A DNA stretch of 64,000 nt from an uncultured Chloroflexia bacterium (GCA_963833225.1 CAWHXD010000019.1:384001-448000); one strand, 5' to 3'. Numbered from the stretch's first letter, positions 3,416-62,039 are shown. Translations and numbers: made by a program. Notes: generated by a model not told the origin, from the letters alone.

Positions 3416-3426
3416 GACGGGCGTGA

Positions 3427-3765
3427 TCAGCGTGCCTGCGGCGTTCCCGTGTCGTCCCCGTGGCGGTTCCTGACGACGTATGCCCAGAAGAAGGGCATCG
3501 CAACCATGAGCACGGTGACGAGCGCGGCGGCGAGCATGGTCGCCTGGGCGCCGAGGTTGAAGTAGACGAGCATCAGGGCCACGTAGGCCAGCGCGGAGCC
3601 GCACCACAGGGTGAGGGTCACGAGGCCCAGCCAGGCGGCGATCCGGGCGCCCCGCCCGCCCCGAGACCCGTACGCGAACCACGCGACGAGGGCCACGATG
3701 CCCTCGACCAGGAACAGCATCGGGACGACCAGCGCGACGGTTTCGGACAGTTCCGTGATCTGCAT
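3427..3765 (-). CDS. Small membrane protein (about 3 TM helices), unknown function
   Basis: 112-aa hydrophobic ORF, 11 bp upstream of the regulator and co-oriented. Confidence 0.7.
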   Translation of the reverse strand: MQITELSETVALVVPMLFLVEGIVALVAWFAYGSRGGRGARIAAWLGLVTLTLWCGSALAYVALMLVYFNLGAQATMLAAALVTVLMVAMPFFWAYVVRNRHGDDTGTPQAR

Positions 3766-3886
3766 CCCCGAGGTCCCCAGTGCGTATCGCGGCCGCGACA
3801 GTGGTCGATAGGGGAATCATCGGTCACGGCCGTCGGTTGGAGCAGGGGCCAAGGGGGAAAAAGTGGCCCGTACCGGTCGATACATC

Positions 3887-3923
3887 CGGACGGCCGTTCG
3901 GACCCGGATCGAACGGCCGTCCG
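3887..3923. promoter_or_regulatory. Perfect 14-bp inverted repeat (operator or terminator)
   Basis: CGGACGGCCGTTCG-N9-CGAACGGCCGTCCG lies between the mtnA stop and the start of the redox operon. Confidence 0.5.
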
Positions 3924-4022
3924 CATTCGGGCGATGTGCGTGGCCCCGGAGCCGACGCTCGTCGCCGGCCTGCCGCCAGGACCGCTCCGCCGGCGTGATC
4001 GGCGTCCCGCTCCTCGTGCCCC

Positions 4023-5030
4023 TCAGGCCCCGCCCGGCGTCTCCCCGCGGTCGGTCCGGATGACCCGCCGGTCGGTGACGATGGCGGTGATGAGCGACGC
4101 CGGCGTGACGTCGAACGCGGGGTTGAGCGCCCGGGTCCCGAGCGGAGCGGACGGGATATCGCGGAAGGACGTGACCTCGCGGGCGTCCCGTTCCTCGATC
4201 ACGATTCCGTCGCCGGTGGGCGTGCCGGCATCGATCGTGGACTCCGGGGCGACGACCAGGAACGGGATCCCCGCGTGGCGCGCGGCGAGGGCAAGCGCCA
4301 GGCTGCCGACCTTGTTCGCCGTGTCCCCGTTCGCGGTGATCCGGTCCGCTCCGATCAGCGCGATGTCGGCCAGCCCGCGGGCCAGCACCGACGCTGCCGC
4401 CCCGTCGACGAGCAGACGATGCGGGGCCCCCATCCTGGAGAGCTCCCACGCCGTCAGCCGCGCGCCCTGCAGCAGGGGCCGCGTCTCGAGCGGAAGCGCC
4501 TCCTCCAGCAGGCCGCGGGCATGAAGCTCGCCCACGACCCCGAGCGCCGTTCCCCGCTCCACGGCGGCCAGCGCGCCCGTGTTGCAGATGGTCATCGCCC
4601 GGACCCGGGGCCGAGCCACGAGCGTCCGGACCAGGTCCGCGCCACGGGTGGCCATCGCGGCACAGGCGGCAATGTCCTCGTCGCGGACGGCGAGCGCCTC
4701 GGCGAGGACCGAAGCCAGGCCGCCGGGCAGCTTCGCCAGGGCACGATCCGTTCCCCAGGCGAGGTTCACCGCCGTTGGGCGTGCGGCGCGGAGCCGTGTC
4801 GCGCCGGCCCGGACCGCTCGTGCATCACCGGGATGGAGGCGTGCCAGCAGCGCGACGCCCATGGCACCCGCGACGCCCAGCGCCGGCGCACCCCGCACGG
4901 CGAGCCGCGAGATGGCATCCACGAGGGCATCAGGCGACGCCACTCGGAGGATGACGAGCTCGTCCGGGAGCCGCGTCTGGTCGATGAGGTGGATCTCGCC
5001 GTCAACCCAGTCGATCGTGCGTTCCGTCAT
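4023..5030 (-). CDS. mtnA: S-methyl-5-thioribose-1-phosphate isomerase
   Basis: IDQTRLP, VRGAPALG, RPTAVNL, CNTGALA, ETRPLLQGARLTAWEL, GADRI..NGDTANKVG, NPAFDVTP. Confidence 0.95.
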   Translation of the reverse strand: MTERTIDWVDGEIHLIDQTRLPDELVILRVASPDALVDAISRLAVRGAPALGVAGAMGVALLARLHPGDARAVRAGATRLRAARPTAVNLAWGTDRALAKLPGGLASVLAEALAVRDEDIAACAAMATRGADLVRTLVARPRVRAMTICNTGALAAVERGTALGVVGELHARGLLEEALPLETRPLLQGARLTAWELSRMGAPHRLLVDGAAASVLARGLADIALIGADRITANGDTANKVGSLALALAARHAGIPFLVVAPESTIDAGTPTGDGIVIEERDAREVTSFRDIPSAPLGTRALNPAFDVTPASLITAIVTDRRVIRTDRGETPGGA

Positions 5031-5170
5031 GGCGTGGCCACGCTAGCATGCGCCCATGTCGGATCTCATCGCCCTCGCGGCCTCCGTCCCCGCCACCACC
5101 GTTGATCGCCCGGCGGCCCTTGACCGAATCGACGCGGTCGCAGACCACGACGTGGAGGGCTGACTTGGCC

Positions 5171-7048
5171 GTGCCTCGCGGCCCCGGGATCGGGGAGCGC
5201 CTCTCGTATCGCTTCGACCGGTTCATGGAGCGGGGCACCATCGCGCTGATCGCGGGCCTGGCCGTCGTCTCGGTGCTGATCATCGTGGTCATCGTGGCGC
5301 TGCTCGTGCTGTTCCGTGGCGACGACGGGCACGACATCCCGTCCTTGCTCTGGATGTCGATGATGCGCACGCTCGACCCGGGCACCGTGGGCGGGGACGA
5401 GGGCAGCGGCCGGTTCCTGGTCGGGATGTTCGCCGTCACCCTCGCGGGCATCTTCGTCATCAGCACCCTCATCGGGATCCTGAGCAACGGCCTCCAGGAC
5501 AAGCTGGCGGCGCTGCGCAAGGGGCGATCCCGGGTGCTGGAGCGCGATCACGTCGTGATCCTCGGCTGGAGCCAGCAGATCTTCGACGTCGTGTCCCAGC
5601 TGCTCCAGGGCGGCGCCGGACGGCCGGGCAACGCGATCGTGATCCTGGCCGATCGCGACCGCGTCGAGATGGAGACGGAGCTCCGAGATCGGGTGAAGAT
5701 CCCTCGCCGAGCCAGCGTCGTCTGCCGGACGGGTCGCGGTTCCGACCTCTCCGACCTGCCCATCGCCAACCCGGACGAGTCCCGGGCGATCATCGTCCTC
5801 CAGGGCAGCGGCGGCGACCCGGACGTCGAGGTCCTCAAGACCATCCTCGCGGTCACCGGTCGGCATGAGCGGCGCACGGAGCCGTACCGGATCATCGCCG
5901 AGGTTCGGGACAGCGCCAGCGAGGGCATCGCCCGTCTCGTCGCCGGCGACGAGGTCCACCTGCTGCTCGCGGACGAGCTGGTCGCGCGGATCATCGCCCA
6001 GACCAGCCGCCAGTCCGGGCTGTCCACGGTCTATCTCGAGCTGCTCGACTTCGCCGGCCACGAGTTCCACGTGGCTGCGATGCCGGCGCTCGATGGCCGA
6101 ACCTTCGGCGACGCGGTCGCCGCGGTCTCGGGCGGTGTCGCCGTGGGCATCGTGGGGGCCGGCGGCGCCCGACTGGCACCGTCGCCCGCCGACGTCCTGG
6201 GCGCCGGCGACCGGATCGTGATCCTGGCCGAAGACCAGGACTCGGCGCGGTTCGGCGCTCCCCTCGAGGTCGACATGGGGGCCATCCATGGCGCCGAGGC
6301 CCGCGAGCCCGAGCCCGAGCGGACGCTCATCCTCGGCTGGAACCGCCGGGGTCCGGCCATCATCCGCGAGCTGGACCAGTACGTCGCGCCGGGCTCCGAG
6401 GTAGTGGCCGTATCGGCCCTGGACTCGGTGGTCGATGCCGGCGCGATCGAGGGGCTCGCGAACCTTCGCGCCTCCGGCCGGGTGCTGAGCTCCACCGCGC
6501 GGCCGGTGCTCGATTCGCTCGACGTTCCCTCCTACCCGCACGTGATCGTGCTGTGCGAGTCGGACGACAGCGACGCGGACCTGGCCGATGCCCGGACGCT
6601 GCTGACCCTGCTCCACCTGCGCGACATCGCCTCGAGGAGCGAGCGACCGTTCACGATCGTGTCGGAGATGCTCGACGAGGGTGACCGGGAGCTGGCCGAG
6701 ATCTCGCAGGCCGACGACTTCATCGTCAGCTCGCGGCTGCTGTCCCTGCTCCTGGCCCAGATCGCGGAGACGCCGGAGCTCGCGGACGTCTTCCGGGAGC
6801 TGTTCCACGCGGAGGGCGCCGAGGTCTACCTGCGGGAGGTGCGCGACTACATCGTGCTCGGCAGGCCCGTGTCGTTCGCCACGCTCCAGGCGGCTGCCCA
6901 GGCCCGCGGGGAGGTGGCCCTCGGCTACCGGATCGCCGCCCGCGCAAAGGAGCCGGGTGCCCGATATGGGGTCGTGCTCAACCCGGACAAGGGCGCGGCG
7001 GTGACCTTCGTCGATGGTGACCGCGTGGTGGTGCTGGCCGAGCGCTAG
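5171..7048 (+). CDS. CASTOR/POLLUX(DMI1)-like cation channel with tandem RCK domains
   Basis: N-terminal TM segments around WMSMMRTLDPGT; two RCK repeats (HVVILGWS; RTLILGWN); C-terminal GVVLNP..GDRVVVLAE. Start approximate. Confidence 0.8.
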   Translation: MPRGPGIGERLSYRFDRFMERGTIALIAGLAVVSVLIIVVIVALLVLFRGDDGHDIPSLLWMSMMRTLDPGTVGGDEGSGRFLVGMFAVTLAGIFVISTLIGILSNGLQDKLAALRKGRSRVLERDHVVILGWSQQIFDVVSQLLQGGAGRPGNAIVILADRDRVEMETELRDRVKIPRRASVVCRTGRGSDLSDLPIANPDESRAIIVLQGSGGDPDVEVLKTILAVTGRHERRTEPYRIIAEVRDSASEGIARLVAGDEVHLLLADELVARIIAQTSRQSGLSTVYLELLDFAGHEFHVAAMPALDGRTFGDAVAAVSGGVAVGIVGAGGARLAPSPADVLGAGDRIVILAEDQDSARFGAPLEVDMGAIHGAEAREPEPERTLILGWNRRGPAIIRELDQYVAPGSEVVAVSALDSVVDAGAIEGLANLRASGRVLSSTARPVLDSLDVPSYPHVIVLCESDDSDADLADARTLLTLLHLRDIASRSERPFTIVSEMLDEGDRELAEISQADDFIVSSRLLSLLLAQIAETPELADVFRELFHAEGAEVYLREVRDYIVLGRPVSFATLQAAAQARGEVALGYRIAARAKEPGARYGVVLNPDKGAAVTFVDGDRVVVLAER

Positions 7049-7076
7049 CCCGGCTCGGGCGTCGCCCGGTCGGTCG

Positions 7077-8938
7077 CTATCGCCGGCGCAGGCGCTCGCG
7101 GGCGTTGTCAAGCAGGATGAACAGCCCAAGGCCCGCAAGGACCAGCAGCACGAGCTCGCGCAGATACGTCCACGCGAGCAGCAGCGCGGACACGGACGCC
7201 AGGATCACCGTCACTCGGAGCAGGAGCGTCTCGACGCGTCGCTGGCGCGAACGACTCGATCGCGAGGTATCCGATCACGAGCAGCATGACGGTGGCGCCC
7301 ACGGGCAGGATCTGGAACCACAGGATCACGGCGAGCGCGATGACCAGGACCCCGACGCTCAACGCCGCCCACGTCTCGGCAAACACGCGCCGCCGGGTGT
7401 GGTCGGGCGGCTCCGGGGTGGCGGTAGACGTGAGGTGTTCCCGAGGATCGCCGCGGTAGCCCGCGTCATAGCGGGCGAGATACGCCTCGGCCGCGGCCGC
7501 CGCGGCCCGCAGCTCCGCCGCGGCCGCCCGCTGCGACGCGAGGCGGGCCTCGCCGTCGGCCAGCTCGGTCGCCCGGCGAGCCCGGTACTCGCCAAGCCCG
7601 GAGGCCTCGGCCAGGGCACGGACCTCAACACCCAGCCCGGGAAGGGTCGAGGCAAGCTCGGATGCCTCGGCTTCGATCGCGCGCCGTTCCGCATCGAGGG
7701 TCGCAACGCGGCCCTCGAGCGTCGCACGCGTCTCGGCCGGCGTCGGGATCCCGGCCAGCCCGACGAAGCTCAGCGGGTCGTTCCAGGACTGGCGGACGGT
7801 CCCGGCGCGTGTGTACTTCGGCCCCGCGGGCGCTCGCTCGCCCGCCATCCGGTCCCCGGTGTCCAGGCCCCACAGGCCCCGGTACGCGTCCACCCACCCG
7901 TCGGCATCCGAGACCAGGACGGGGCTCCACGCGATCTCCTGGCCCGGGCCGACGGTGACGCCGTCGCCACGCGCATAGTCCACGAACGGGATGCTCACGA
8001 GGCGCGCGATCATCTCGGCAAGGTCGCCGGGGTCGGGCTGGTTGAGCGTGTCGCGCCACGTCCGTCGGACCCAGTCGAGAATGCCGCGCTGCAGCGCGGA
8101 CCCGGGCAGGGCAAGCCGCATGATGTACTCGCCAGGCTCGACGTACGTCGCATGCGGACCCGGCGCCGGGGTAGACGACGACGTGCTCGCCCTCCTTGCG
8201 GAGCGTGGGGTCGTCCCAGCGGCGGCGCAGGTCCGCGCCACGCTCGTCGTGCGCCGCGGCCGCGAACCAGATCGGGATGACGTCCCCGTCGGGCAGCTGC
8301 TCGAGGATCACGAAGGCCTGCTCCCAGTCGGCCTCGTGGTCATTGGCGCCCTCGAACGTCGAGCGCCAGTCATTCATCGGGTAGAAGAACAGGTAGTGCA
8401 GGACGACCCAGCCATCCTGGCGGACGACGCGTCCGTGATAGCTGACCCGCGGGTCCCTCGAACGCAGGCGCTGGTACTTGATTGCGGCCGCGGCGGCCGT
8501 GCCGCCCGGGACCTTGCCGCGCACGAGGAGCGAGGCCACGACCCCGGCGTCCAGCATGCGGGCGAGGATGCCCACGCGAGCCAGGCGCCCGGGCGCGCGG
8601 AACCGTGGCCGGTCTGGCCGGTTCATGAACCTCGCGAGCTCGAGCGGGTTGAGCGGCTCCTGCACGAAGCGCAGGAAATGGGCTTCCCCGGGCGGCGCGT
8701 CGCCAATCGCCGCCAGGCGCTCGGCGTCGAGCTCGCCGACCGGGACCACCACCCGTGCGGCTGACGGCGTGGGGCCAGAGAGCAGGTCGCATGCGGCCAG
8801 GTAGCTCGTCGCCGGGGTGGGGAAGAACTGCTCCCCGTGCGTGAACCGCAGGATCGGCTCGAAGCGGCGAAGCAGGGCCTCGTCCCCATCGCCCGGGCTC
8901 GCCGGGGCCGCGGGCGCCACGCCCACCGGGACGGTCAT
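7077..8938 (-). CDS. Conserved hypothetical protein (NPP1/Vps62-like N-domain, coiled coil, C-terminal TM helices); frameshifted
   Basis: Joins ORFs 7625-8938 and 7108-8241 (shift ~8155) and a third frame ending TAG 7077 (shift ~7240). Motifs FEPILRF..FFP, YLFFYPMNDW, HEADWE. Confidence 0.6.
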
Positions 8939-9410
8939 TCGCGTTGCCCGGCCGAGATGCGTGCGCGGTCGAGGAGGTCACACCCAGGACCTCGCGGACC
9001 TCGCGCTGGTTGAGGTAGAACACGGTGATGATGTTGAGCCCCATCCACAGGTGGTTGGCGCCGCCGTTCGCGAAGCCGTAGAGATCGAGCGCGATGGCCA
9101 GCCCGGTGACGACCATCGCCAGCAGCCAGCCCACCCGCCTGCGGCCCAGCATCCCCAGGGCCGAGACCACCAGCACGACGCCGTAGATCGCGAGGATCGA
9201 GCCCGCCCACGGCACCTGTCGGACCAGCGCGATGAAGTCGGGCGTGGTCGAGAGCGCGACCGCGGGCTGGAGTGCGACGAAGCTGGTCCCGCCGACCAGG
9301 ATGAACACCAGGATCGCCCTGAACAGCATCACGCCGGAGAGGATGTAGAGCGTCAGCGGCAGCCGCCGCCGGGGCGATCCCGAGGCGGGCAGGGGAGCAG
9401 GTTCCGACAT
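8935..9410 (-). CDS. Small 4-TM membrane protein; probable frameshift near the 3' end
   Basis: MSEPAPL..YLNQREVRE is hydrophobic; a stop in another frame at 8935 overlaps the next ATG (ATGA). Confidence 0.6.
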
Positions 9411-9444
9411 CGAGCCTATGGTGCCACGCACCCTCTCCCGGGTC

Positions 9445-10386
9445 TCACGGGTGCAGCAGCAGCAGGCCGCCCGGGTAGAGGCGTGCGTCGAGCGACGAGG
9501 GGGCGACGACGTCCCCGTCCACCTGCGTGGGGCCCGGCGGTGACACGGTGACCCTGACGTGGGTGCCGAGGAGCCGGATTCCGGCTCCCGAGTGGGATTC
9601 GCCGGCCGCGTCGGCGAGCATGAGCTCCAGCGCGCCACGGATCCCGCCGAGGAGCCCCCCTCGGGGCAGGACGAACACGTGCAGCAGCCCGTCATCGGGG
9701 CGGATCGGCAGCCTTGGTCCCAGCCGTCCGGGGATCGGCTCGCCGCAGTTGGCCACGAGGACGACGACCGACTCCAGCTCCTTGCGGACGCCGTCGACCT
9801 CCACGATCGTCGGCCGCGGGGCGAGATCACCCAGCAGCCGGCTTGCCGCCAGGAAGTACGCGGCCACCCCGTACCGGCGCTTGGCGTCATGGGACGTGGC
9901 CGCGATGAGCCGGGCGTCGAGGCCCGTGCCACAGGCCACGATGAACGGGGAGTCGACCGCGTCCGCCCCGTCGCGGGGGCCACCCGACGGCCGCATCCGG
10001 ACAGACCCCACGTCGAACGGCACGGGCGAGCCTGCGCGGATGACGTCGATCGCCGCGCCCAGGTCACGGGGCAGTCCGACCGCCGTCGCGTACAGGTTGC
10101 CGGTGCCGCAGGGGACGATGGCGACAGGGGTCCCGCTGCGGGTGAGCGGCCCCGAGGCGTCCCGGACGGTCCCGTCTCCGCCGGCCACCACGACGAGCCC
10201 GGCGCCGGCGTCCACGGCGGAGGTCGCTGCCGCCCGAACCATCGCGGACTCGCCGGCCTCGATCACCTCGATCCGCGTGGCCCCGCGGGCGCGCGCCGCG
10301 GCGGTCACGGCCCGAATGACGCGGCGGCGCTCCCGGTCGTCGCGGATGCGCGACGCGAGCGGGCTGACGATGAGCGTGGCGAGCAT
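9445..10386 (-). CDS. Diacylglycerol-kinase-family lipid kinase
   Basis: AGGDGT, PCGTGN, GTGLDA and QVDGD motifs. Confidence 0.9.
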   Translation of the reverse strand: MLATLIVSPLASRIRDDRERRRVIRAVTAAARARGATRIEVIEAGESAMVRAAATSAVDAGAGLVVVAGGDGTVRDASGPLTRSGTPVAIVPCGTGNLYATAVGLPRDLGAAIDVIRAGSPVPFDVGSVRMRPSGGPRDGADAVDSPFIVACGTGLDARLIAATSHDAKRRYGVAAYFLAASRLLGDLAPRPTIVEVDGVRKELESVVVLVANCGEPIPGRLGPRLPIRPDDGLLHVFVLPRGGLLGGIRGALELMLADAAGESHSGAGIRLLGTHVRVTVSPPGPTQVDGDVVAPSSLDARLYPGGLLLLHP

Positions 10387-32979: not shown

Positions 32980-33012
32980 CCGTGCTCGAACCCATGACGT
33001 AAAGGAGGCCCG

Positions 33013-33432
33013 ATGCTCAAGACCCGCCTGCTTCACCCGGAGATCCTCGCCGCGCTCGGCGAGGCCGGCCACGGCGCCCAGGTGCTGATCGCGGACGGCA
33101 ACTACCCGCTGGCCACGCGCTCCAACCCCGACGCCTACCGGGTGTTCCTCAATCTCGCGCCCGGCCAGCTCACCGTCACCGACGTCCTCGACGTCATCGC
33201 CGACGCGATCCCCATCGAGGCCGCCTGCGTGATGGGCCCCGACGATGACACGGAGCCGTCGATCTACGCGGACTTCCGACGGATCCTGCCGGACACGGAG
33301 CTCCAGCGGCTGGGCCGCTTCGAGTTCTACGACATGGCCAGGGGCCCGGACACGGCGCTCGCGATCGCCACCGGCGAGCAGCGCATCTACGCCAACATCC
33401 TGCTCACCATCGGGGTGGTGATGCCCGAGTAG
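33013..33432 (+). CDS. fucU: RbsD/FucU-family mutarotase
   Basis: [37 protein letters not shown]; lies upstream of fucI. Confidence 0.85.
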
Positions 33433-33484
33433 GGCAGGGCAGGTTTCGTTCACACCGCGTCCCAGGAACAAGAGGACCACGACC

Positions 33485-35290
33485 ATGACCACCGTCAACA
33501 CGTCCGGCCGCTTCGTCGGGGACTGGCCCAGGATCGGTATCCGCCCCGCGGTCGACGGCCGCCAGCACGGCGTCCGTGAGTCGCTCGAGGAGCAGACCCG
33601 GAACATGGCGCTCCGGACGGCGGAGCTCATCCGCGCCAACCTGCGCTACCCGGACGGCACGCCCGTGGAGGTCGTGGTCCCCGACCACAACATCGGCGGC
33701 GTGTACGAGGCGGCCAAGGTTGCCGAGCTGTTCCGCAAGGAGGGCGTTGGCGTCTCGCTGACGATCACGCCCTGCTGGTGCTACGGCTCCGAGACGATGG
33801 ACATGGATCCCCTGACCCCCAAGGCCGTATGGGGCTTCAACGGCACCGAGCGCCCGGGCGCTGTGTACCTCGCGGCGGTCCTCGCCGCCCACACCCAGAA
33901 GGGGCTGCCGGCGTTCGGCATCTACGGCCGAGACGTCCAGGACGCCGGCGACGGCACGATCCCTGACGACGTGCAGGCGAAGATCCTGCGCTTTGCGCGG
34001 GCCGGCATGGCCGCCGCGATCCTGCGCGGCAAGTCGTACCTGAGCCTCGGTGGCGTGTCCATGGGCATCGCCGGCTCGATCGTGGACCAGCCGTTCTTCG
34101 AGAAGTACCTGGGCATGCGTGTCGAGGCCGTCGACATGTCCGAGATCTACCGCCGGCTCGAGGAGGGGATCTACGACCCGGTCGAGTTCGAGAAGGGTCT
34201 CGCCTGGGCCAGGGCCAACTGCCGCGAGGGTGTGGATCGCAACCCGGCCGACAAGGCCAAGACCCGCGAGGAGCTCGACCGCGACTGGGAGGTCGTGGTC
34301 AAGATGACCCTCATCGCGCGCGATCTCCTGGTGGGCAACCCGAGACTCGCCGAGCTCGGCTTCGGCGAGGAGGCGCTGGGCCGCAACGCGATCCTGGGCG
34401 GGTTCCAGGGTCAGCGGGCATGGACCGACCACAGCCCCAACGGCGACTTCATGGAGGCGATCCTCAACTCCAGCTTCGACTGGAACGGGATCCGCGCCCC
34501 GCACATGTTCGCGACCGAGAACGACTCGCTCAACGGCGCGACGATGCTGCTCTCCTACCTGCTGACCAACCGGGCCCAGATCTTCGCGGACGTCCGCACA
34601 TACTGGAGCGCGGAGGCCGTGGAGCGGGTGACCGGGCACAGGCTCGAGGGTCTCGCCGCGGGCGGCTTCATCCACCTCATCAACTCCGGCGCGGCGACGC
34701 TCGACGCCACCGGCGCGATGACGGACGCCGACGGCAAGCCGGCCATGAAGCCGTTCTGGGACATCACCGACGGCGACGTGAAGGCCGCGCTCGCGGCCAC
34801 GACCTGGTACCCGGCCAACCGCGGCTACTTCCGCGGCGGCGGCTTCTCCAGCCAGTTCGTGTCCAAGGGCGGGATGCCCGTCACCATGGCCCGCCTCAAC
34901 CTCGTGAGCGGGACCGGACCCGTGCTCCAGATCGCCGAGGGCTGGACCGTGGACCTGCCCACGGATGTCCACGACATCCTGGACCAGCGGACGGATCCCA
35001 CCTGGCCCACCCACTGGTTCGTGCCGCGGACCACGGGCGAGGGCGTCTTCCGCGATGTCTACACCGTGATGGCCAACTGGGCCGCGAACCACGGTGCGAT
35101 CAGCTACGGCCACATCGGTGCCGACCTGATCAGCCTGGCCTCGGTGCTCCGGATCCCGGTCCACATGCACAACGTGGCCGAGGAGGATCTCTTCCGACCC
35201 AGCGCGTGGGCCAACCTGGGCACGGCCGATCCGGAGGGCGCCGACTTCCGGGCCTGCGCCAGCTTCGGCCCGCTCTACGGTCGCAAGTAG
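33485..35290 (+). CDS. fucI: L-fucose isomerase
   Basis: [74 protein letters not shown]. Confidence 0.97.
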
Positions 35291-35785: not shown

Positions 35786-36976
35786 CTATTCCGCCGGCAG
35801 ATGAAGCGGGTACGTCCCGTACTCGCGGACGAGCTTGACGATCTGGTCGTAGGTGTGACCCGACACGTCGCTCGCGACCGAGTGGTCGCTCATGAATACG
35901 TAGCCGCCGCCCTCGGCGGCGCGCAGCCGGTGGAGCACCTCGCGACGTACCTCGTCCGGATCGCCGCGCTCCCAGACGCGGATGTCGCTGTTGCCGCAGA
36001 ACGTGAGCCGATGGCCCAGCCGCTCGCGGAGCGTGACGACGTCGAGGTCCGCCTTGGCCTCGAGCGGGTTGTAGCCGTCGAGCCCGATCTCGATCATGTC
36101 CTCGAAGATCGCGTTGGCGTTGCCGCACCCGTGGTACATGACCAGCAGGCCGTGCTGGTGGGCCAGCTCGATGATCCGGGCGACCGTCGGCTTGTAGTAC
36201 TTGCGCCAGTAGGTGGGGCCCATGAACAGGCTCTTGCCGTAGGCGACGTCGCCCCAGATGACGAGCCCGTCCAGGAGGCCGTCCGCCGCCTCGATCTGGG
36301 CCTTGGCGATCTCGTAGCTGAACTCGCCGATGCGAAGCAGCTGCTCGCCGAACCGCTCCGGGAACTCGCCGGTCCACATCAGGGTGTTGAGCTGGCCCAG
36401 GAGGCGCGTGCAGATCTCGGACGCCTCCGTGACGCTGCCGAACACCGGGAAGTCCGGGTACAGCCCCTTGACGGTCTCCACCCACGGCGGGCTGTTGCGC
36501 TCGAAGCCATCGCCCACGCCGGCGATCTGGTTGTCGCCGGCCTCGAAGTAGCGGCGCCGGTCGGTCGGGTCGTCGAACTCGAACGCCTCCAGCTTCTCGA
36601 TCGTGTCCGTCTCCCAGCTCACCTGCTCGGGCATCGGCAGGTCGAAGCGCTTGCGGATCGTGGTCTCGAAGCCGGTCTTGACCACCACCTCCTCGTCGTC
36701 CTCGCGGATCGTCTCGAAGGCCCGGATGTGGGGATCCATGTTGGGGACGGTGGTGATGAAGTCGAGGTCGTAGTGGTAGTACGGATCGGCGTCGGCCGGC
36801 AGCCCCAGCTCCGTGCGCCACCGGTCACGGAACTGGCCCCAGAAGAAGTCCGTGATCGGGACGCGGTCCGCCTCCTGGTGCCCGAAGGTCTTCCGGATCC
36901 GGTCCAGCTTGGCCAGCGTCGAGGGCTTGCGGTCCGTGCCTCCGCCCCGTCCGTAGGTCTCGAACATGCCGGGCAT
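35786..36976 (-). CDS. UroD/MtaA-CmuA-fold protein (putative cobamide-dependent methyltransferase)
   Basis: ADRVP, WGDVAY, YHGCG metal motif, NPLE, GGGYVFMSDHSV; lies 4 bp downstream of the corrinoid-protein gene. Confidence 0.8.
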   Translation of the reverse strand: MPGMFETYGRGGGTDRKPSTLAKLDRIRKTFGHQEADRVPITDFFWGQFRDRWRTELGLPADADPYYHYDLDFITTVPNMDPHIRAFETIREDDEEVVVKTGFETTIRKRFDLPMPEQVSWETDTIEKLEAFEFDDPTDRRRYFEAGDNQIAGVGDGFERNSPPWVETVKGLYPDFPVFGSVTEASEICTRLLGQLNTLMWTGEFPERFGEQLLRIGEFSYEIAKAQIEAADGLLDGLVIWGDVAYGKSLFMGPTYWRKYYKPTVARIIELAHQHGLLVMYHGCGNANAIFEDMIEIGLDGYNPLEAKADLDVVTLRERLGHRLTFCGNSDIRVWERGDPDEVRREVLHRLRAAEGGGYVFMSDHSVASDVSGHTYDQIVKLVREYGTYPLHLPAE

Positions 36977-55429: not shown

Positions 55430-55665
55430 GTGTGGCCTCCCCAATGTGACCGGACGACACCCGCAGGGCGACGGCCCGCTTCGGGCGGCGCAGGTGCCGC
55501 GGTCAGGATAAACGATTGCTCATCGACCCCACAAGCCCGCCGCGCACGGATTCGACGCGTCGTCGGCGTCACCTGCCGACAACCCCATGTGACCTGACGG
55601 GGCGCATCGCCTTGGAACAACGGCGCGAAGGGGGAACGCCGACACGTGTCGCACAACCCCGACCG

Positions 55666-56682
55666 CTAGCCGACGGAACCTGCCGTGACCGGTCCTCCGC
55701 TGGAGCGACGGACGACGAGCTCGACCGGGAGGACGACCTCCCGCGGCGGCCGGCCCGGGTTCGCCAGCCGGTCGAGCAGCATCGCGACGCTCTCCCGGCC
55801 CATGTCGAACGCGGGCTGGGCCGCGACCGTGAGGAAGGGGAAGAGGACCATCGCCTCGGGCAGATCGTCGAAGGCGACGACCGCGACGTCCTCCGGCACC
55901 CGGATCCCGAGCTCGTCGAAGGCATGCGTGGCGCCGATCGCGATGAAGTTGTTGCCGGCGAACACGGCGGTCGGCCGCGGCACCGCCTGCATCGCGGCGC
56001 TGGCCATCTCGTGGCCGCTGTCGATCGAGAACTTCCCGTGGAGGACGAGCGGTGCGGGCAGCCCGGCCTCGTCGACGACGGCCTGCCTGAAGCCGTCCAC
56101 ACGGTCGACCGCGATCGGGACCGTCGCCGGGCCCGCGAGGATGGCCATGTCCCGGTGGCCAAGCCCCACCAGCAGCCGCCCGAGCGCGAGAGCGCCGCCG
56201 ACCGAGTCCGCGCGCACGACATCGGCCTCGCCACCCTGCGGCCGCCGATCCACGATCACCAGGTGGACGCCGCGCTCGCGGCACAGCTCGATCGCCTCGG
56301 CCCCCGAGCCCGCGGGGGCGACCAGGAGCCCGTCAACCTGGCGCTGCAGGAGCATCTGGACCAGCCGCTGTTCTTCGTCGGGGCGCTCGTCACTGTTGGC
56401 GAGGATCATGGTGATCCCGGCTTCCCGGGCCGCCGCCTCCACGCCGTGGGCAAGCGTCGTGAAGAACGGGTTCGTCATGTCGGGCAGCAGCAGCGCGATC
56501 GTGTCCGTTCGCTTGGCGCGCAGGCTCCGGGCGAGCGTGTTGGGCATGTAGCCGGTCTCGGCCAGCGCTTGTTCCACGCGGGCACGGAGCCTGGGGCTGA
56601 CCTTGGCGGAGCCGTTGACGACCCGCGACACGGTCATCGGGGAGACCCCGGCTCGCCGGGCGACGTCAAGAAGGGTCGACAT
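55666..56682 (-). CDS. LacI-family regulator
   Basis: TLLDVARRAGVSPMTVSRVVN, YMPNTLARSL, VPEDVAVVAFDD. Confidence 0.93.
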   Translation of the reverse strand: MSTLLDVARRAGVSPMTVSRVVNGSAKVSPRLRARVEQALAETGYMPNTLARSLRAKRTDTIALLLPDMTNPFFTTLAHGVEAAAREAGITMILANSDERPDEEQRLVQMLLQRQVDGLLVAPAGSGAEAIELCRERGVHLVIVDRRPQGGEADVVRADSVGGALALGRLLVGLGHRDMAILAGPATVPIAVDRVDGFRQAVVDEAGLPAPLVLHGKFSIDSGHEMASAAMQAVPRPTAVFAGNNFIAIGATHAFDELGIRVPEDVAVVAFDDLPEAMVLFPFLTVAAQPAFDMGRESVAMLLDRLANPGRPPREVVLPVELVVRRSSGGPVTAGSVG

Positions 56683-56715
56683 GGGAGCTCGCTGGGTTCC
56701 TCGGCGGGGCTTGGC

Positions 56716-56729
56716 TGGTAACGCTAGCA
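56716..56729. promoter_or_regulatory. LacI-type operator (autoregulatory)
   Basis: TGGTAACGCTAGCA, about 35 bp upstream of the LacI start. Confidence 0.65.
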
Positions 56730-56827
56730 ACGCAGCGCGCCAGCGTCCAGCCCGGGAAGGCGCGATCCGCCCCACACGCGCGGGTGGACGTCAGGCTGGG
56801 TCCTGGACGCGCGCATCGTGGGCCGGC

Positions 56828-57649
56828 CTAGAACCCGCGCAGGCCGGTGCTGGTCCGGGCGGGGAGGCCCGCGTGGGGCACCCGCCTGAGGACCACGTAC
56901 TCGATCCCGTGCTCCCGACAGAACTCGCGCTTCTCCGGCTGGTCGCCATCCTCGTTGACGACGTAGAACGCCGGCCGGATCGCATCGATCTCGGGGTCGG
57001 CGTCCATCCATCCCTCGCCCGACGAGACGAGGCACCGGTGGACGCTGTCCACGGCGCCGACCATGTAGCGCCGCTCATCCTCGTGCTGCAGCGGGTGCCC
57101 GGGGCCTTTGAGCAGCTCCACGTTCCTGTCGCTGCCGACGACCGCGTACAGGGCTCCGTACTCGGCCGCGTCCATGAAGAACCGGATGTGGCCCGAGTGG
57201 AGCCAGTCGTAGCAGCCGGTGACCACGACCCGCGGTTTGCCTTCCGGGGGCGGCGGAGGCTCGCTGACCGGGAACCCGGCGCGGGCCTGCCGGCTCACGG
57301 TTCGGCAGCCGACGCCGTGCGCCTCGACCGCGGATCTCAGGGTCGGCTCGTCATCCTCCTCGCGCACGACGAGCGCGGAGCCGGCGGCCGCCAGGGCGTC
57401 GAGGGTGGCGGGTTCCCCGGTGAGCGACCGGTCCACGATCTCCGTGCTCGCCACCCAGCGGATGGACTCGGCGAGGAACAGCCGCTCGGCGGCCGGGAAG
57501 GCGGGCGGTGTGCCCAGGCGTTCGGTCACCAGCGCGTCGGATGGGATCCGCACGTGCAGAGGCCCCAGCGATGCCGCCTCCTCGAGGAAGCGCACGTCGT
57601 CGGATCGGAGGTTGTCGAGGGTGGTCTCGACCACCGCGGATCCCCTCAC
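56828..57649 (-). CDS. Tandem cytidylyltransferase-like (HxGH) nucleotidyltransferase
   Basis: The C-domain has VTGCYDWLHSGH, GSD and ERRYMV; the N-domain is a degenerate copy (LDNLRSDD..AERL). Confidence 0.75.
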   Translation of the reverse strand: MRGSAVVETTLDNLRSDDVRFLEEAASLGPLHVRIPSDALVTERLGTPPAFPAAERLFLAESIRWVASTEIVDRSLTGEPATLDALAAAGSALVVREEDDEPTLRSAVEAHGVGCRTVSRQARAGFPVSEPPPPPEGKPRVVVTGCYDWLHSGHIRFFMDAAEYGALYAVVGSDRNVELLKGPGHPLQHEDERRYMVGAVDSVHRCLVSSGEGWMDADPEIDAIRPAFYVVNEDGDQPEKREFCREHGIEYVVLRRVPHAGLPARTSTGLRGF

Positions 57650-58474
57650 GCCGTCCGGACCCGCACGCCGGCCGAACCCGCCGGGGCCGTCTCCGAGGCC
57701 ACGATCACGTACCCGCCACCACAGCCGGAGAGCATCGCCCCGGCGTGCTCGGTGGCGTAGGCGGCCACCAGGGCCAGCAAGTCGATCGTGATCGTTGGGT
57801 GGACATAGACCTGGGGCAGGAGCGCGTCCCAGGCACGGGTGGTCTCGTTGAGCGACTCGCCGAGCGCCCGGAGGTCCATGGCCAGGATCGCGTCGTAGCA
57901 GGCGCGGCCGCTGGCGCTCAAGCGGGCGATCCACGCCGGGTCGAGTCGCTTGACCCCCAGCGGGGCGTATCCCGGCGGGCGCTGCCCGATGGGCACGAGG
58001 TGGATGACCCGCTCCAGCCAGGCCAGCGTCTCGGGATCGGTGGTGGATTCCACGCGGGATGGGAACCAGCCGCCTTCAACGGCGGCGTCGTAGTCGAGGC
58101 GGCTGATGCCCGGGTAGATCAGGCCGCACATGTCCTGCGAGCCAGATGGCTCGGCGAGGTTGGCGTTCTCGGCGGCGTACAGCTCTCGGACCAGGCTGGC
58201 CGGCGTCCGGTCGGCCGGAAACGCGTCGCCCCACAGCGCCTGGGCCGCCACGCGGGTCCCGGTCGCCATCCCGCACCGATCCATGTAGCGGACGGTGGGC
58301 TGCAGCGAGACCACGACCATGGAGCCCGGCGGCTCGGGGTTGACCGCCGACAGCCAGGGCTGGTCGATCCAGCCGCCGGCCATCTGCAGCCGATAGGGGA
58401 GGCTCCCGATCGTTCCGCGCAGGACGGCGGTTCGCGGGCGTCGCAGCCGAAGCGGATGCCGCCGGACCGGCCAC
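57646..58474 (-). CDS. GHMP-family sugar kinase (HddA/fucokinase-like); probable frameshift near the 5' end
   Basis: PYRLQMAGGWID, GMATGT, GSQD, LSGCGGG; the GTG start at 58474 is in another frame. Confidence 0.7.
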
Positions 58475-58479
58475 GGTCG

Positions 58480-59541
58480 TCAGCCCTCGACGACGCGCTT
58501 GCCGGCCTTGCGGTCGGCGAACTGCTCGGAGATCCACGCATACGTCTCGGCCATGCCGTCGCGGAGCGGCGTGCTGGGCTCCCAGCCCAGGACCTGCTCG
58601 ATGAACGTGTTGTCGCTGTTGCGACCGGCCACGCCCTTGGGCGCGTCCAGCTTGTACGTGCGCTCGAGCGTGACGCCGGCGATCTCCTCGACCATCGAGA
58701 CGAGATCGTTGATCGAGATGAGCTCGCTCGAGCCGAGGTTGATCGGCGTGGCGATCAGCTCCGGGCTGTGCATGATCCGGTCGATGCCGTGGAGGCAGTC
58801 GTCGATGTAGCAGAAGGAGCGCGTCTGGCTGCCGTCGCCCCAGATCTCGATCCGCAGGTCGCCGCTGTCCTGCGCCTCGAGCACCTTGCGGCACATCGCC
58901 GCGGGCGCCTTCTCACGGCCGCCGAACCAGGTCCCGTTGGGTCCGTAGATGTTGTGGAAGCGGGCGATGTGGGTCTCGAGGCCGCGCTCCGCCCAGTACT
59001 CCTGGCAGAACATCTCGGAGACCAGCTTCTCCCAGCCGTAGCCACGCTCGGCCATGGCCGGGTAGGCATCGGACTCCTTGAGCGCGATGACATCCGGGGA
59101 CTTCTGGAGGTCCGTGTTGTAGGCGCAGGCCGACGAGGAGAAGAAGTAGCGCTTGACGCCGGCGCGGTAGGACGCCTCGGTCAGGTGCGTGTTCACGAGG
59201 ATGCTGCGCAGGCACTCCACCCGGAAGTTCTCGATGAAGCCCATGCCGCCCATGTCGGCGGCGAGGTTGTAGACCTCGGTCGCGCCCTTGACGGCCTCGA
59301 TCGCGTTCTGCTCGTGGGACAGGTCCATCGAGATCGACTCGACCCCCGGCACGCGCAGGTACCAGTCCGGCAGCGGCTTGCGGTCGACCGCCCGGATGCG
59401 GGTGTAGCCCTGCTCGGCGAAGTAGCGGGTGAGCGACCCGGCGATGAACCCGCCGGCCCCGGTGATGACGATCAGGTCGTCCTTGTCGAGGCCGCGCTTG
59501 ACGCTCGTGCCGGGGATGGTGTCCGTGAACTCGGTGGTCAT
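58480..59541 (-). CDS. GDP-mannose 3,5-epimerase-like extended SDR
   Basis: GAGGFI, NLAADMGGMGFI, SSSACAY, YGWEKL, RFHNIYGP.GTWFGGREKAPAAMCRK. Confidence 0.88.
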   Translation of the reverse strand: MTTEFTDTIPGTSVKRGLDKDDLIVITGAGGFIAGSLTRYFAEQGYTRIRAVDRKPLPDWYLRVPGVESISMDLSHEQNAIEAVKGATEVYNLAADMGGMGFIENFRVECLRSILVNTHLTEASYRAGVKRYFFSSSACAYNTDLQKSPDVIALKESDAYPAMAERGYGWEKLVSEMFCQEYWAERGLETHIARFHNIYGPNGTWFGGREKAPAAMCRKVLEAQDSGDLRIEIWGDGSQTRSFCYIDDCLHGIDRIMHSPELIATPINLGSSELISINDLVSMVEEIAGVTLERTYKLDAPKGVAGRNSDNTFIEQVLGWEPSTPLRDGMAETYAWISEQFADRKAGKRVVEG

Positions 59542-59604
59542 CTGGGGTCCTCTGTGGGTTGGCGAACGGGCAGCAATGCCAGTGGCGGGGTCGAGCAGAT
59601 CGTG

Positions 59605-59618
59605 TGGTAACGTTACCA
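59605..59618. promoter_or_regulatory. Perfect LacI-type palindromic operator in a divergent promoter
   Basis: TGGTAACGTTACCA between the epimerase and manC starts. Confidence 0.75.
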
Positions 59619-59659
59619 AATGCGATGGCCGGTTGTCTACCCCCGGAGGGACATCCCCA

Positions 59660-60820
59660 ATGTACGCAGTCATCCTGGCCGGCGGGGGCGGAACCCGCCT
59701 GTGGCCCCTGTCACGGCCCGAGAAGCCCAAGCCCTTCCTGCCGCTGATCGGTGACCGGACGCTGCTCCAGCGCACCTGGGACCGGGTCGTGCCGGGGCTC
59801 GTGGGTGCTGCCGATGTGGCGGTGGTCACCGATGTCCGGTACGCAGGCCTGGTCCGCGACCAGCTGCCCGACCTTCGCGACGAGATGCTGCTCGAAGAAC
59901 CGGTGGGCCGCAACACCGCGGCGGCCCTGGCGTTCGCGGCCGCGGCCGTCGACCGGCCGGAGGACGAGGTCATGCTCGTTCTCCCGGCCGACCATCTCGT
60001 CGCCGACGAGCCCGCGTTCCGGGCCATCCTGCGCCAGGCCGCCGACGTCGCTGCGGCGATGCCGCCCGACCGCGGGCCGGGGCGGCTGGTCACGCTCGGG
60101 ATCGCGGCCGATGGGCCCGAGACCGGCTACGGCTACATCGTGGCCGGGCGCCGCGATCGACGGGCACGATCCGGCGGTCGCCGTCGCGCGGTTCGTCGAG
60201 AAGCCATCGGCCGACGAGGCCGCCGCGATGCTCGACGGGCCCCACGCAGGTCGCCTGGAACGCCGGGATCTTCCTGTGGCGGCGTGATGCGCTCCGGGCC
60301 GCCTTCGAGGCGGGGTCGCCCGACATCCTCCGGGCCGTCGAACGTGGCGTGTCCGGTGGCCCGGCGGGACTCGAGGCCGCCTATGCGACCGTCCGGGCGA
60401 CATCGATCGACTATGCCGTGCTCGAGCCGGCTGCCGCTGCCGGGCGGGTGGCGATGCTGCGGGCGTCCGTCGGCTGGAGCGATCTCGGGAGCTGGAGCTC
60501 GTTGCGGGACGCCCTTGCGGGACGCAGGCGCCGACCCAGGCGTCGTCGGCCGGGGGCCGCGAACCGATCTCGGATCCGAGCGGACCCTGGTCATCGCCTC
60601 CGACCGGCCGGTGGTCACCATCGGGCTGCGCGACGTGATCGTGGTGGACGCGGGGGACGTGATCCTGGTGGCGGCGGCTGAGGCCTCGCAGCAGGTCAAG
60701 GCCGCGGCCGAGCAGTGGGCGGCGGCCGGAAGCGCTGACGCCCTGTCAGATCGCGAGGTGCGCCCGTCCGTCGGGAAGTCGGAAGCCGATCGGGACGTCG
60801 CCATCGGTGTAGACCCGTGA
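59660..60820 (+). CDS. manC: Mannose-1-phosphate guanylyltransferase; frameshifted
   Basis: ILAGGGGTRLWPLSR..PKPF, EPVGRNTA, PADH, ETGYGYI; FVEKP, WNAGIF, SIDYAV and WSDLGSW lie in alternate frames. Confidence 0.88.
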   Translation: MYAVILAGGGGTRLWPLSRPEKPKPFLPLIGDRTLLQRTWDRVVPGLVGAADVAVVTDVRYAGLVRDQLPDLRDEMLLEEPVGRNTAAALAFAAAAVDRPEDEVMLVLPADHLVADEPAFRAILRQAADVAAAMPPDRGPGRLVTLGIAADGPETGYGYIVAGRRDRRARSGGRRRAVRREAIGRRGRRDARRAPRRSPGTPGSSCGGVMRSGPPSRRGRPTSSGPSNVACPVARRDSRPPMRPSGRHRSTMPCSSRLPLPGGWRCCGRPSAGAISGAGARCGTPLRDAGADPGVVGRGPRTDLGSERTLVIASDRPVVTIGLRDVIVVDAGDVILVAAAEASQQVKAAAEQWAAAGSADALSDREVRPSVGKSEADRDVAIGVDP

Positions 60821-62039
60821 CAGGCGCGTGGCCAGCGCATCCATGACCTCCCAGCTGATCGAGTCCCGCCGATCCGCCAGGTCGTGGACCGTCATCGCGC
60901 CCTCCGCGCCGAGGAGCACCACCTCGTCGCCTGCATCGAAGCCGCGCACATCGGTGACGTCGAGCGCGGTCGCGTCACTGCTGATGCGGCCCACGATCGG
61001 GACCCGATGCCCCCGGGCCAGGCCCCAGCCGTCGGTCGCGTAGGCGCGTGCCCAGCCGTCGGCGTAACCCAGCGGCAGCGTGGCGATGACTGACGACCGG
61101 GTCGCCGTCCAGGTGCCCCCGTAGCCCACGGCTGCCCCAGCCTCGATCGTGGTGACGGTCGTGGCCCGGGCCCGGATTGACAGCGCCGGCCGGAGGCCGC
61201 TCATCGCATTCGCCAGGCGGGACGCGATCGGGATGTCGGGCGGCACGATACCGTAGAAGGCGAGCCCGATCCGGACGAGGTCGTACGCGGGCGACACCCC
61301 CGCGAGCAGCCCACCGGTCGCGTCGAGGTGACGCAGGCCGGGATCGATGCCGGCGGCCCGGAGCGCCGCGAGCAGGCCTTCGAAGCGCGCGACCTGTTTG
61401 CCGACCGCCGCAGGATCGTCAGGGGTGGCCAGGTGCGACCAGGTACCGGCGAGCGCGGGCAGGCCAGCATCGAGCAGCCGTTGGGCCGCGACCACGCCGT
61501 CACCGGGGCTGAGCCCACCCCGGGAAAGGCCGGTGTCGATGCCGAGGTGGACCCGCGGTGCGGCTGCTGGCCCGGCGTCCGACGGGGAATTGTCGGGCGG
61601 TCGGATGGTCACCGACCCCAGCCAGCCGGTGAGCGCTGCGCATCGAGGCCTCATCCGCCACCACGATGTCCAGGGCCGCCTCGATCGCGACCCCGAGCAC
61701 CGTCGGCGGCACCGGGTACTGGACCAGGATCCGGCTCTCGATCCCGCTGTCACGGAGCGCCAGCCCCTCGTCCAACGTGGCAACCACGAGGGTGGTCGCC
61801 CCCCCGGCAACGGCGGCTCGGGCGGCTGCGACGAGACCGTGGCCGTAGCCGTCAGCCTTGACCACGACGCCCAGCGAGGTCTCGGCCGGCAGGGCATCCC
61901 GGAGCCGGCGCGCGTTGTCCGCGAGCACGGCAAGATCCACCTCGACCCACGCCAGCCTGGGCAGCGGCGGCAGCCCAGCGTCGGTGAGGCGTGACTCGAT
62001 CGATCCATCGTGTCGGGTCAGGGCGGCGTCCATGCTCAT
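60746..62039 (-). CDS. alr: Alanine racemase; frameshift ~61640
   Basis: VVKADGYGHG (PLP Lys), VATLDEG, HLGIDTGLSRGG, SHLA, GYGG, GYADG, GRISSD. Confidence 0.9.

Follow-up and report, generated by a model that had tools for sequence, protein, structure and literature searches.

An operon at positions 55,666–60,820 of a 64,000-nucleotide stretch of DNA from an uncultured Chloroflexia bacterium (the whole stretch is hereafter called the window) combines a new kinase family with an unusual nucleotidyltransferase. It encodes a homologue of GDP-mannose 3,5-epimerase (hereafter GME), a small divergent sugar kinase of the GHMP fold that we call KINL, a tandem nucleotidyltransferase of the cytidylyltransferase fold bearing an HxGH motif, and a LacI-family repressor; a gene for a ManC-type mannose-1-phosphate guanylyltransferase (manC) diverges from it. 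We hypothesize that this is an inducible catabolic route, which probably converts a free hexose of L-fucose shape, L-galactose being the best candidate, to mannose phosphate by way of a GDP-sugar. The evidence consists of gene identities at the level of family and fold, gene order, the co-occurrence of an operator sequence with the repressor, catabolic gene neighbourhoods, and gene fusions in relatives, all of which are observed. A sequence-only reading of the window had described a tightly coupled epimerase, kinase and nucleotidyltransferase followed by a LacI gene, with manC divergent, and all five genes proved to be where it had placed them.

Proposed pathway

In the route that we infer, together with its substrates, nucleotide, direction of flux and inducer, L-galactose would be released by GH29-type enzymes and taken up, and a FucU or RhaM mutarotase, where present, would set its anomer. 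KINL would phosphorylate the sugar at C1, and the C-terminal HxGH domain of the nucleotidyltransferase would combine the resulting L-galactose-1-phosphate with GTP to give GDP-L-galactose. GME would then work opposite to its direction in plants, turning GDP-L-galactose into GDP-D-mannose, from which ManC, running backwards with pyrophosphate, would yield mannose-1-phosphate and GTP. Phosphomannomutase (PMM) and phosphomannose isomerase (PMI), both encoded elsewhere in the genome, would complete the path to fructose-6-phosphate. The LacI repressor would bind a palindrome in the GME–manC interval as well as a weaker copy ahead of its own gene, and the sugar or an intermediate would release it. 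This chain from L-galactose to fructose-6-phosphate is the simplest that uses every part.

L-galactose seems preferable to L-fucose as the substrate because GME can carry L-galactose into central metabolism, and because the genome already has two L-fucose routes. The chemistry of the first two steps has a precedent in FKP: according to its description, this enzyme can phosphorylate L-galactose and form GDP-L-galactose from it, its Km being 3.3 mM for L-galactose versus 34 µM for L-fucose (PMC11982464). We found no published description of a GDP-linked route of L-galactose catabolism, nor any published mention of an L-galactokinase or an L-galactose-1-phosphate guanylyltransferase, in a search that lay largely outside subscription journals.

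The epimerase

The window GME matches plant GME structures with E values of 2e-80 (8sg0, across residues 23–345 of 352) and 4.5e-79 (2c59), and the next families among short-chain dehydrogenases/reductases (SDRs) are far weaker (MoeE5, 5.6e-24; GDP-fucose synthase, 7.2e-22). The catalytic and wall residues named for the Arabidopsis enzyme, in the available sections of a 2022 review, are the triad S143/Y174/K178, the acid–base pair C145/K217, and R306, R243 and N203 (PMC8787198). All eight are kept in the window GME when it is aligned to 2c59, whose PDB chain numbering is offset by +2, and by this comparison the enzyme looks fully functional. GME also interconverts GDP-L-gulose, as stated in the part of PMC6678494 available to us.

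In this similarity and in all eight residues the window enzyme agrees with the GMEs of plants and of Methylacidiphilum fumariolicum (2c59, 8sg0). It differs from them in proposed function: the known roles are biosynthetic (ascorbate, cell wall and lipopolysaccharide; PMC8787198), whereas here a reverse flux is proposed. For bacteria, the available sections of the 2022 review name biosynthetic roles only, namely lipopolysaccharide and possibly antibiotics (PMC8787198). Unlike the known GMEs, the window GME also falls in a clade of its own, which is highly conserved and goes together with KINL. GMEs linked to the kinase and nucleotidyltransferase are 70–93% identical across phyla, and those of other phyla are 70–82% identical to the window GME; 17 GMEs without the kinase, from the window's own phylum, are 40–61% identical to it.

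The kinase

Because KINL had no sequence match in Pfam (E values up to 10), NCBIfam or the PDB, a predicted fold was needed. Its homologues number more than 5581, every one of them unnamed or called "hypothetical", and the best 120 are 71–94% identical to it. A model built from 39 sequences (pLDDT 94.5) has the two-domain fold of GHMP kinases. Of 918 chains compared, 187 reach Z ≥ 8 against the model, and all 50 of those listed have the GHMP fold, most being GHMP kinases. Anomeric sugar kinases make up six of the seven best structural matches: the heptokinase WcbL (4usk) leads at Z 22.8 (root-mean-square deviation 2.8 over 238 residues). With Z 20.5 for the fucokinase part of FKP, to which KINL is 20% identical, and Z 20.4 for galactokinase, the three scores fall within 2.5 Z units, so the fold alone does not separate the sugars. 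R21, D30 and D107 are invariant in the 39 sequences. The loop before helix 64–74 of the model reads GMAT(G/S)TR in the family; G61 never varies, and T66 and R67 are almost invariant. The segment is loop-like but unlike PxGSGLGSS, the consensus of the glycine-rich phosphate-binding loop (motif II) of GHMP kinases.

A profile search of 1.84 billion representative proteins returned 702 relatives of KINL, and 20 of the best 150 were scanned against Pfam. Three of the distant relatives, P0213 (30.9 bits), P0227 (29.1) and P0171 (23.6), and a fusion protein of locus L052 (23.8) pass the cut-off of 21 bits for GHMP_kinases_C. A cytidylyltransferase domain lies N-terminal to the KINL part in 11 of the 20 scanned relatives; fusions of CTP_transf_like to KINL include P0125, P0138, P0147, P0165, P0254 and L052:4436-5593, and P0139 has two such domains. 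Since kinase and nucleotidyltransferase are fused in these relatives, the two would be expected to act together. In P0163 an L-rhamnose-mutarotase domain precedes the KINL relative, which points to a free sugar, one for which the anomer is important, as the start of the pathway in at least one lineage. P0227 carries a PNP_UDP_1 phosphorylase domain in front of its KINL relative, and to judge from such architectures the wider family is functionally diverse.

The nucleotidyltransferase

The nucleotidyltransferase matches Pfam CTP_transf_like (PF01467) in two stretches at 40.2 bits (cut-off 21) and TIGR00125 at 50.2 bits (cut-off 27.7). In an alignment of 30 sequences HSGH is invariant in the C-terminal domain, which also holds the RYV-like and RxSTxLRGF motifs. 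The N-terminal domain is degenerate, with LRSxD in place of HxGH, and is probably a non-catalytic partner domain. The model of the protein (pLDDT 94.2) matches, over the whole chain, human ethanolamine-phosphate cytidylyltransferase (ECT; 4xsv, E 2.3e-14, TMq 0.78), and the matches to a single domain include HldC (5xf2; 5x9q, E 2.6e-06). Human ECT (4xsv/3elb) likewise has two cytidylyltransferase folds per chain, an HxGH motif and a C-terminal motif of the RxST type. The window protein differs from it in the loss of HxGH from the N-terminal domain and in its presumed substrates, a sugar-1-phosphate and GTP.

The matches to WcbL (Z 22.8) and HldC raise the alternative of heptose-type activation, in which KINL would be a heptose phosphate kinase, the nucleotidyltransferase an adenylyltransferase like HldC or RfaE, and the SDR an epimerase resembling that of ADP-heptose. 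The model for RfaE domain II (TIGR02199) does detect the nucleotidyltransferase (E 2.2e-14), but its cut-off is 181.5 bits and the score 53.5; for HldE, model NF008454 reaches 38.5 bits against 521, and the heptose epimerase model 43.4 against 274.6. The SDR is a GME at E 2e-80 with the Cys/Lys acid–base pair, and the lead of WcbL over FKP and galactokinase is less than 2.5 Z units. No match to the SIS family (GmhA type) occurs among 237 open reading frames (ORFs) flanking 30 loci that encode KINL relatives, and within the genome itself gmhA is seen only below threshold, on contig C5 (110.5 bits against 209.45), a result that is not decisive in a genome 86% complete. The sequence-only reading had raised a heptose kinase as the identity that would tell against it; the lack of GmhA-type neighbours, an RfaE domain II score under the cut-off and a sub-threshold gmhA on another contig all speak against that identity, and we consider heptose activation very improbable.

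Conservation of the module

Stretches that encode a relative of KINL numbered at least 560 in a scan of a collection with one genome per species, and the best 80 loci were analysed. By their record titles, the source of all phylum labels used here, these loci belong to Chloroflexota, Latescibacterota, Acidobacteriota, Planctomycetota, Verrucomicrobiota, Spirochaetota, Hydrogenedentes and Armatimonadota, at least eight phylum-level labels, and the planctomycete carriers include the cultured Fontivita pretiosa B-254 (locus L051). GME is directly upstream of KINL in 73 of the 79 loci where this could be tested and elsewhere in the locus in 3 more; the nucleotidyltransferase is directly downstream of KINL in 65 of 75 and elsewhere in 2 more. 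Within the window's own phylum KINL occurs in 3 of 301 sampled genomes, all from the window's family, and KINL proteins of other phyla are 55–60% identical to that of the window. This patchy yet conserved distribution suggests that the module has spread horizontally.

Two departures from the common arrangement concern the nucleotidyltransferase. GME and KINL occur without the HxGH enzyme in six loci of Acidobacteriota/Bryobacterales (L037, L043, L044, L061, L069 and L079) and in L035 and L056. In L061 a gene for an MFS transporter follows KINL directly, and in L035 the following gene is that for ManC. Another nucleotidyltransferase may take over the step in such loci. In two Latescibacterota loci (L067:8805-10612 and L075:8817-10664) a C-5 cytosine DNA methylase gene and an ORF of unknown function lie between KINL and the nucleotidyltransferase.

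Locus L052 has two modules in tandem (3424-9662): a second one made up of a LacI gene, a 385-aa cytidylyltransferase–kinase fusion and a paralogous GME, and after it the canonical GME, KINL and nucleotidyltransferase genes. The paralogous GME is 44% identical to the window GME and matches 2c59 at E 1e-81. This double module suggests either two related substrates or a recent duplication.

Gene neighbourhoods

Neighbouring genes were assigned by comparing with Pfam the 237 ORFs that flank KINL in 30 loci (in the second batch 111 of 191 ORFs, the farthest being dropped), and FucU, L-fucose isomerase (FucI), GH29 alpha-L-fucosidase, PMI and PMM were counted with representative proteins in all 80 loci, within 8 kb for the first three. 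A FucU mutarotase accompanies the module in 24 of the 80 loci, FucI in 13 and GH29 in 9, and at least one of these is present in 34; PMI adjoins it in 4 and PMM in 1. The 30 scanned loci also hold sugar transporters of the ABC and MFS types, which are frequent, and LacI or AraC regulators. Among the 237 ORFs, only L065, with GT41-TPR proteins, and L056, with a PMT_2 fragment, show glycosyltransferase-like neighbours, and Wzx, Wzy and Wzz are all absent. In L056 (5479-11307) a GH29 alpha-L-fucosidase gene stands between GME and KINL and is followed by a sulfatase gene, a hint that the sugar may come from a sulfated fucan or galactan.

As a control we used the 301 sampled genomes of the window's phylum, 20 of which have a GME at E values up to 1e-60; in 17 the kinase is missing, and the loci of 12 of these were fetched. 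Within 6 kb of the 12 control GMEs there is no KINL, no nucleotidyltransferase of this type, no LacI and no FucU. Eleven of them sit among genes for GT1, GT2, GT4 or WecG glycosyltransferases, Wzy, Wzz, Bac_transf, Wzt-type exporters or sulfotransferases; the twelfth (L082) adjoins an SDR resembling GDP-mannose dehydratase and a GH43 gene. Because the two kinds of neighbourhood are opposite, bacterial GMEs appear to form two classes, one biosynthetic and one linked to the kinase. The sequence-only reading had noted that no glycosyltransferase or export gene lies near the operon, and there is none among the 28 window ORFs scanned at 35786–63999. It had also proposed to compare the association of the three genes with transporters and with glycosyltransferases. 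On that comparison the trio keeps company with importers and sugar-catabolic genes, does not normally sit in surface-polysaccharide clusters of the kind that hold 11 of the 12 kinase-less GMEs, and a catabolic interpretation is favoured.

Within the window, FucU and FucI are encoded at 32998–35290, about 20 kb from the operon, and are 87% and 90% identical, respectively, to those that adjoin the trio in L003. Between 40597 and 55444 there are genes for an ABC sugar importer, a second LacI, an SDR, a FAH-family protein, an aldo-keto reductase, a lactonase-type protein and a UxaA-type dehydratase; on these family assignments the region next to the operon is a candidate oxidative deoxy-sugar island.

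Weighing the catabolic interpretation

Several observations weigh against a catabolic route through GDP-L-galactose. GME is missing from 3 of 79 loci (L034, L047 and L054), the HxGH nucleotidyltransferase is absent from the flank in 8 of 75, mostly in Acidobacteriota, only 20 of the 80 loci include ManC, and only 5 include PMI or PMM. In the Latescibacterota loci L036, L042, L067 and L075 no sugar-catabolic neighbours were seen. FucU, FucI and GH29, which make up most of the neighbourhood markers, are as indicative of L-fucose as of L-galactose. Three distant KINL relatives carry glycosyltransferase-like domains (P0183, GT2; P0194, TcdA/TcdB-like; P0153, weakly), and parts of the wider family may serve biosynthesis. 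Finally, enzymes of the cytidylyltransferase fold use CTP or ATP, and we know of none that uses GTP. Were the product not a GDP-sugar, the link to GME would need another explanation, and the nucleotide is the weakest link in the proposal.

Some of these points would suit a biosynthetic function, in which the kinase and nucleotidyltransferase would salvage L-galactose or L-fucose, and ManC with GME would make GDP-L-galactose de novo, for a cell-envelope glycan whose glycosyltransferases are encoded elsewhere. ManC and GME are the known de novo pair, and the fusions of distant KINL relatives to glycosyltransferase domains fit this explanation. So do the exclusively biosynthetic roles that the 2022 review, in its accessible sections, gives for bacterial GME (PMC8787198), and the function of FKP, the closest characterised analogue, as a salvage enzyme for fucosylation in the available part of its description (PMC11982464). 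It is nevertheless rather unlikely in view of the LacI repressor with its conserved operator, the position of the trio beside fucosidases, mutarotases, isomerases and importers, and the near absence from the 237 neighbouring ORFs of glycosyltransferases (GT41-TPR and a PMT_2 fragment only) and of Wzx, Wzy and Wzz, in contrast to 11 of the 12 kinase-less GMEs of the same phylum, which do sit in such clusters.

The same enzyme logic might also serve another sugar: L-fucose, which would pass through GDP-L-fucose to GDP-6-deoxy-D-mannose, or L-gulose, which the sequence-only reading had also named, D-arabinose, or a methylated or sulfated derivative. L-fucose is what FucU, FucI and GH29 are markers of, a sulfatase gene adjoins the block in L056, and the second module of L052 with its own GME suggests more than one substrate. 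Kinases of the FKP type tolerate changes at C5 and C6 in the accessible account (PMC11982464), and GDP-L-gulose is a further substrate of GME in the part of PMC6678494 noted above. Against L-fucose, the genome already has FucI and FucU as well as the oxidative deoxy-sugar route; GDP-6-deoxy-D-mannose has no evident onward catabolic route, and this sugar would leave ManC, PMI and PMM beside the block unexplained. All eight catalytic and wall residues of the GDP-mannose enzyme are kept, a further point against this alternative, and we regard a substrate other than L-galactose as quite unlikely.

L-galactose catabolism through GDP-L-galactose and GDP-D-mannose thus remains our preferred account of the operon. 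A broader version of it is evenly poised in our judgement: many phyla might burn L-galactose through a reversed GME, with a new family of small GHMP L-sugar 1-kinases and what would be, so far as we know, the first GDP-sugar-making enzyme of the cytidylyltransferase fold, bacterial GMEs would fall into a biosynthetic and a catabolic class, and the catabolic module would have spread horizontally as one unit.

The repressor and its putative operator

The LacI protein scores 66.5 bits for the Pfam LacI helix-turn-helix domain and 126.8 bits for Peripla_BP_3; its best NCBIfam matches are of the RbsR, PurR and CytR types, all under the equivalog cut-offs. The sequence-only reading had pointed to a perfect operator between GME and manC that resembles a site before the LacI gene. 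The palindrome, TGGTAACGTTACCA with a central CG, is indeed exact, and the copy before LacI has two mismatches. Counting that copy, there are two matches where 0.20 would be expected, and of 100 shuffles one gave as many.

Across the 80 loci, LacI orthologues (at least 44% identity) occur in 38, and operator sites were counted with up to 2 mismatches within 250 nt upstream of a gene. Such a site precedes GME in 21 of the 38, the LacI orthologue in 17, and one or the other in 31. The 42 loci that have no LacI orthologue contain no operator site anywhere. In all, 47 sites occur in 1.14 Mb of locus sequence, about 43 of them within the promoter windows of GME or LacI. The palindrome therefore goes with the LacI orthologue, being present in 31 of the 38 loci that have the repressor and in 0 of the other 42, as expected if the repressor binds the site, and by this comparative evidence it is the operator of this LacI. 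In the 86%-complete genome there is no other credible operator, the sole additional match with up to 2 mismatches (C7:86589) lying inside a coding region, and on these matches the repressor seems local to the operon. Regulators of the AraC or XylR type adjoin the block in loci where LacI is absent (L051, L030 and L080).

Comparison with known systems

The Leloir pathway for D-galactose has a pyrophosphorylase (Isselbacher) variant. The proposed route would share with it a mutarotase, an anomeric GHMP kinase, formation of a nucleotide sugar from the sugar-1-phosphate, conversion of this by an SDR epimerase to a common nucleotide sugar, a common hexose-1-phosphate as the released product, and regulation by a repressor of the LacI family. 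The differences are that the carrier would be GDP and not UDP, the sugar an L-sugar and not D-galactose, and the epimerization a double one at C3 and C5 by GME and not one at C4 by GalE. Moreover, two unrelated pyrophosphorylases take part here, one of the cytidylyltransferase fold and one of the ManC type, and the kinase family has no Pfam model; apart from the GHMP fold of the kinase, every enzyme is non-orthologous. Because neither the operon nor the 237 flanking ORFs of the 30 loci gave a match to the GalT family, the likeness is to the pyrophosphorylase variant and does not amount to membership of the Leloir pathway.

The closest single analogue is FKP of Bacteroides fragilis (9iip, 9iit, 5yys), which, in the available part of its description, couples a GHMP anomeric kinase to the nucleotidyltransferase of the next step (PMC11982464). 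Kinase–nucleotidyltransferase fusions are likewise seen in KINL relatives. In FKP, however, the pyrophosphorylase is N-terminal in a 950-residue protein and has the NTP_transferase (GT-A-like) fold, whereas here the partner has the HxGH cytidylyltransferase fold. KINL is about 90 residues shorter than the FKP kinase. FKP serves fucosylation, and the block described here belongs with GME, a repressor and catabolic genes.

To our knowledge, the only bacterial route of L-galactose breakdown is oxidative. In Bacteroides vulgatus L-galactose is reportedly converted to L-galactonate and then to D-tagaturonate, with no nucleotide sugar. That route would serve the same purpose, catabolism of free L-galactose, and none of its enzymes is encoded in the operon. 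L-galactose occurs in side chains of plant pectin and xyloglucan, in red-algal galactans and in microbial slimes.

If the proposal is correct, the operon would provide a second and energetically cheap route for L-galactose, spending one ATP per sugar and recycling GTP. It would give a function to a large "hypothetical" family (more than 5581 matches, and at least 560 stretches where each species is represented by one genome) and a catabolic role to bacterial GME, and would widen the substrate range of the cytidylyltransferase fold. The block is nearly unchanged in its carriers, polysaccharide-eating bacteria of soil and sediment that number in the hundreds, and annotation of carbon cycling would improve for uncultured Chloroflexota, Acidobacteriota, Planctomycetota and Latescibacterota. 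Enzymes of diverse thermal properties and phylogeny would also become available for making GDP-L-galactose and L-sugar phosphates, production of which is named as an industrial aim in the accessible sections of the GME review (PMC8787198).

Locus layout and assembly quality

The operon lies on contig C19 of a 3.9-Mb genome that is 86% complete, and the G+C content of the window is 71%. Its five genes (Table 1) were called from codon-position G+C and lists of ORFs.

Table 1 Features of the operon region, in window coordinates
Feature	Position	Strand	Remarks
LacI-family repressor	55666-56685	-	339 aa from ATG 56685; Pfam LacI HTH, Peripla_BP_3
Second operator-like site	56716-56729		2 mismatches to the palindrome; 31 nt upstream of LacI ATG
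Tandem cytidylyltransferase-fold nucleotidyltransferase (HxGH)	56828-57649	-	273 aa; Pfam CTP_transf_like
KINL, small divergent GHMP-fold sugar kinase	57646-58474	-	~275 aa, GTG 58474; predicted fold
[quoted passage not shown]
Perfect 14-bp palindromic putative operator	59605-59618		In the 121-nt GME/manC divergent intergenic region
manC, ManC-type mannose-1-phosphate guanylyltransferase	59660-60820	+	Divergent from GME; Pfam domains; frame broken 3 times

The manC product contains the Pfam NTP_transferase and ManC beta-helix domains, and its first 157 aa score 124.3 bits against TIGR01479. A second ManC is encoded in the genome at C7:488771-491328, 50% identical over those 157 aa, with a PMM-like gene beside it; the two are probably the housekeeping GDP-mannose pair, and the operon manC would therefore be an extra copy.

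The window sequence breaks the reading frame in two genes of the operon. manC starts in frame 2 and passes through frames 3 and 1 back to frame 2, the breaks lying near 60142, 60238 and 60520; its pieces in frames 2, 1 and 2 are 78–83% identical to an intact 382-aa orthologue in locus L015, and a weak frame-3 piece lies between them. No ATG, GTG or TTG lies upstream of ATG 58383 in the frame of KINL, and the homologues of KINL, of about 275 aa, start some 30 codons before that position. We aligned to the window contigs of relatives from four public metagenome runs, most pieces being 90–99% alike. These contigs are one base shorter at 58428 (three runs: X1, X2 and X4), at 60146 (one run), at 60234/60235 (two runs) and at 60524 (three runs), and these positions are the four break points, one in KINL and three in manC. 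Since the relatives lack one base at each break, the window has four single-base insertions, which on this comparison are most likely errors of the assembly consensus. The alanine racemase gene (alr, 60746–62008) also switches frame, its N-terminal domain being found only in its second half, and the breaks in manC, KINL and alr look like a systematic long-read consensus error of the contig. That manC is a pseudogene is less likely, given that the relatives lack exactly one base per break and that another gene of the contig, alr, is similarly broken.

A scan of 55500–60900 for sigma-70 promoters gave 0 sites, and the two terminator-like sites both lie inside genes. The coding regions are closely packed: the GTG of KINL follows the GME stop after 5 nt, the stop of KINL overlaps the start of the nucleotidyltransferase in GTGA, and 142 nt separate the nucleotidyltransferase stop from the ATG of LacI.

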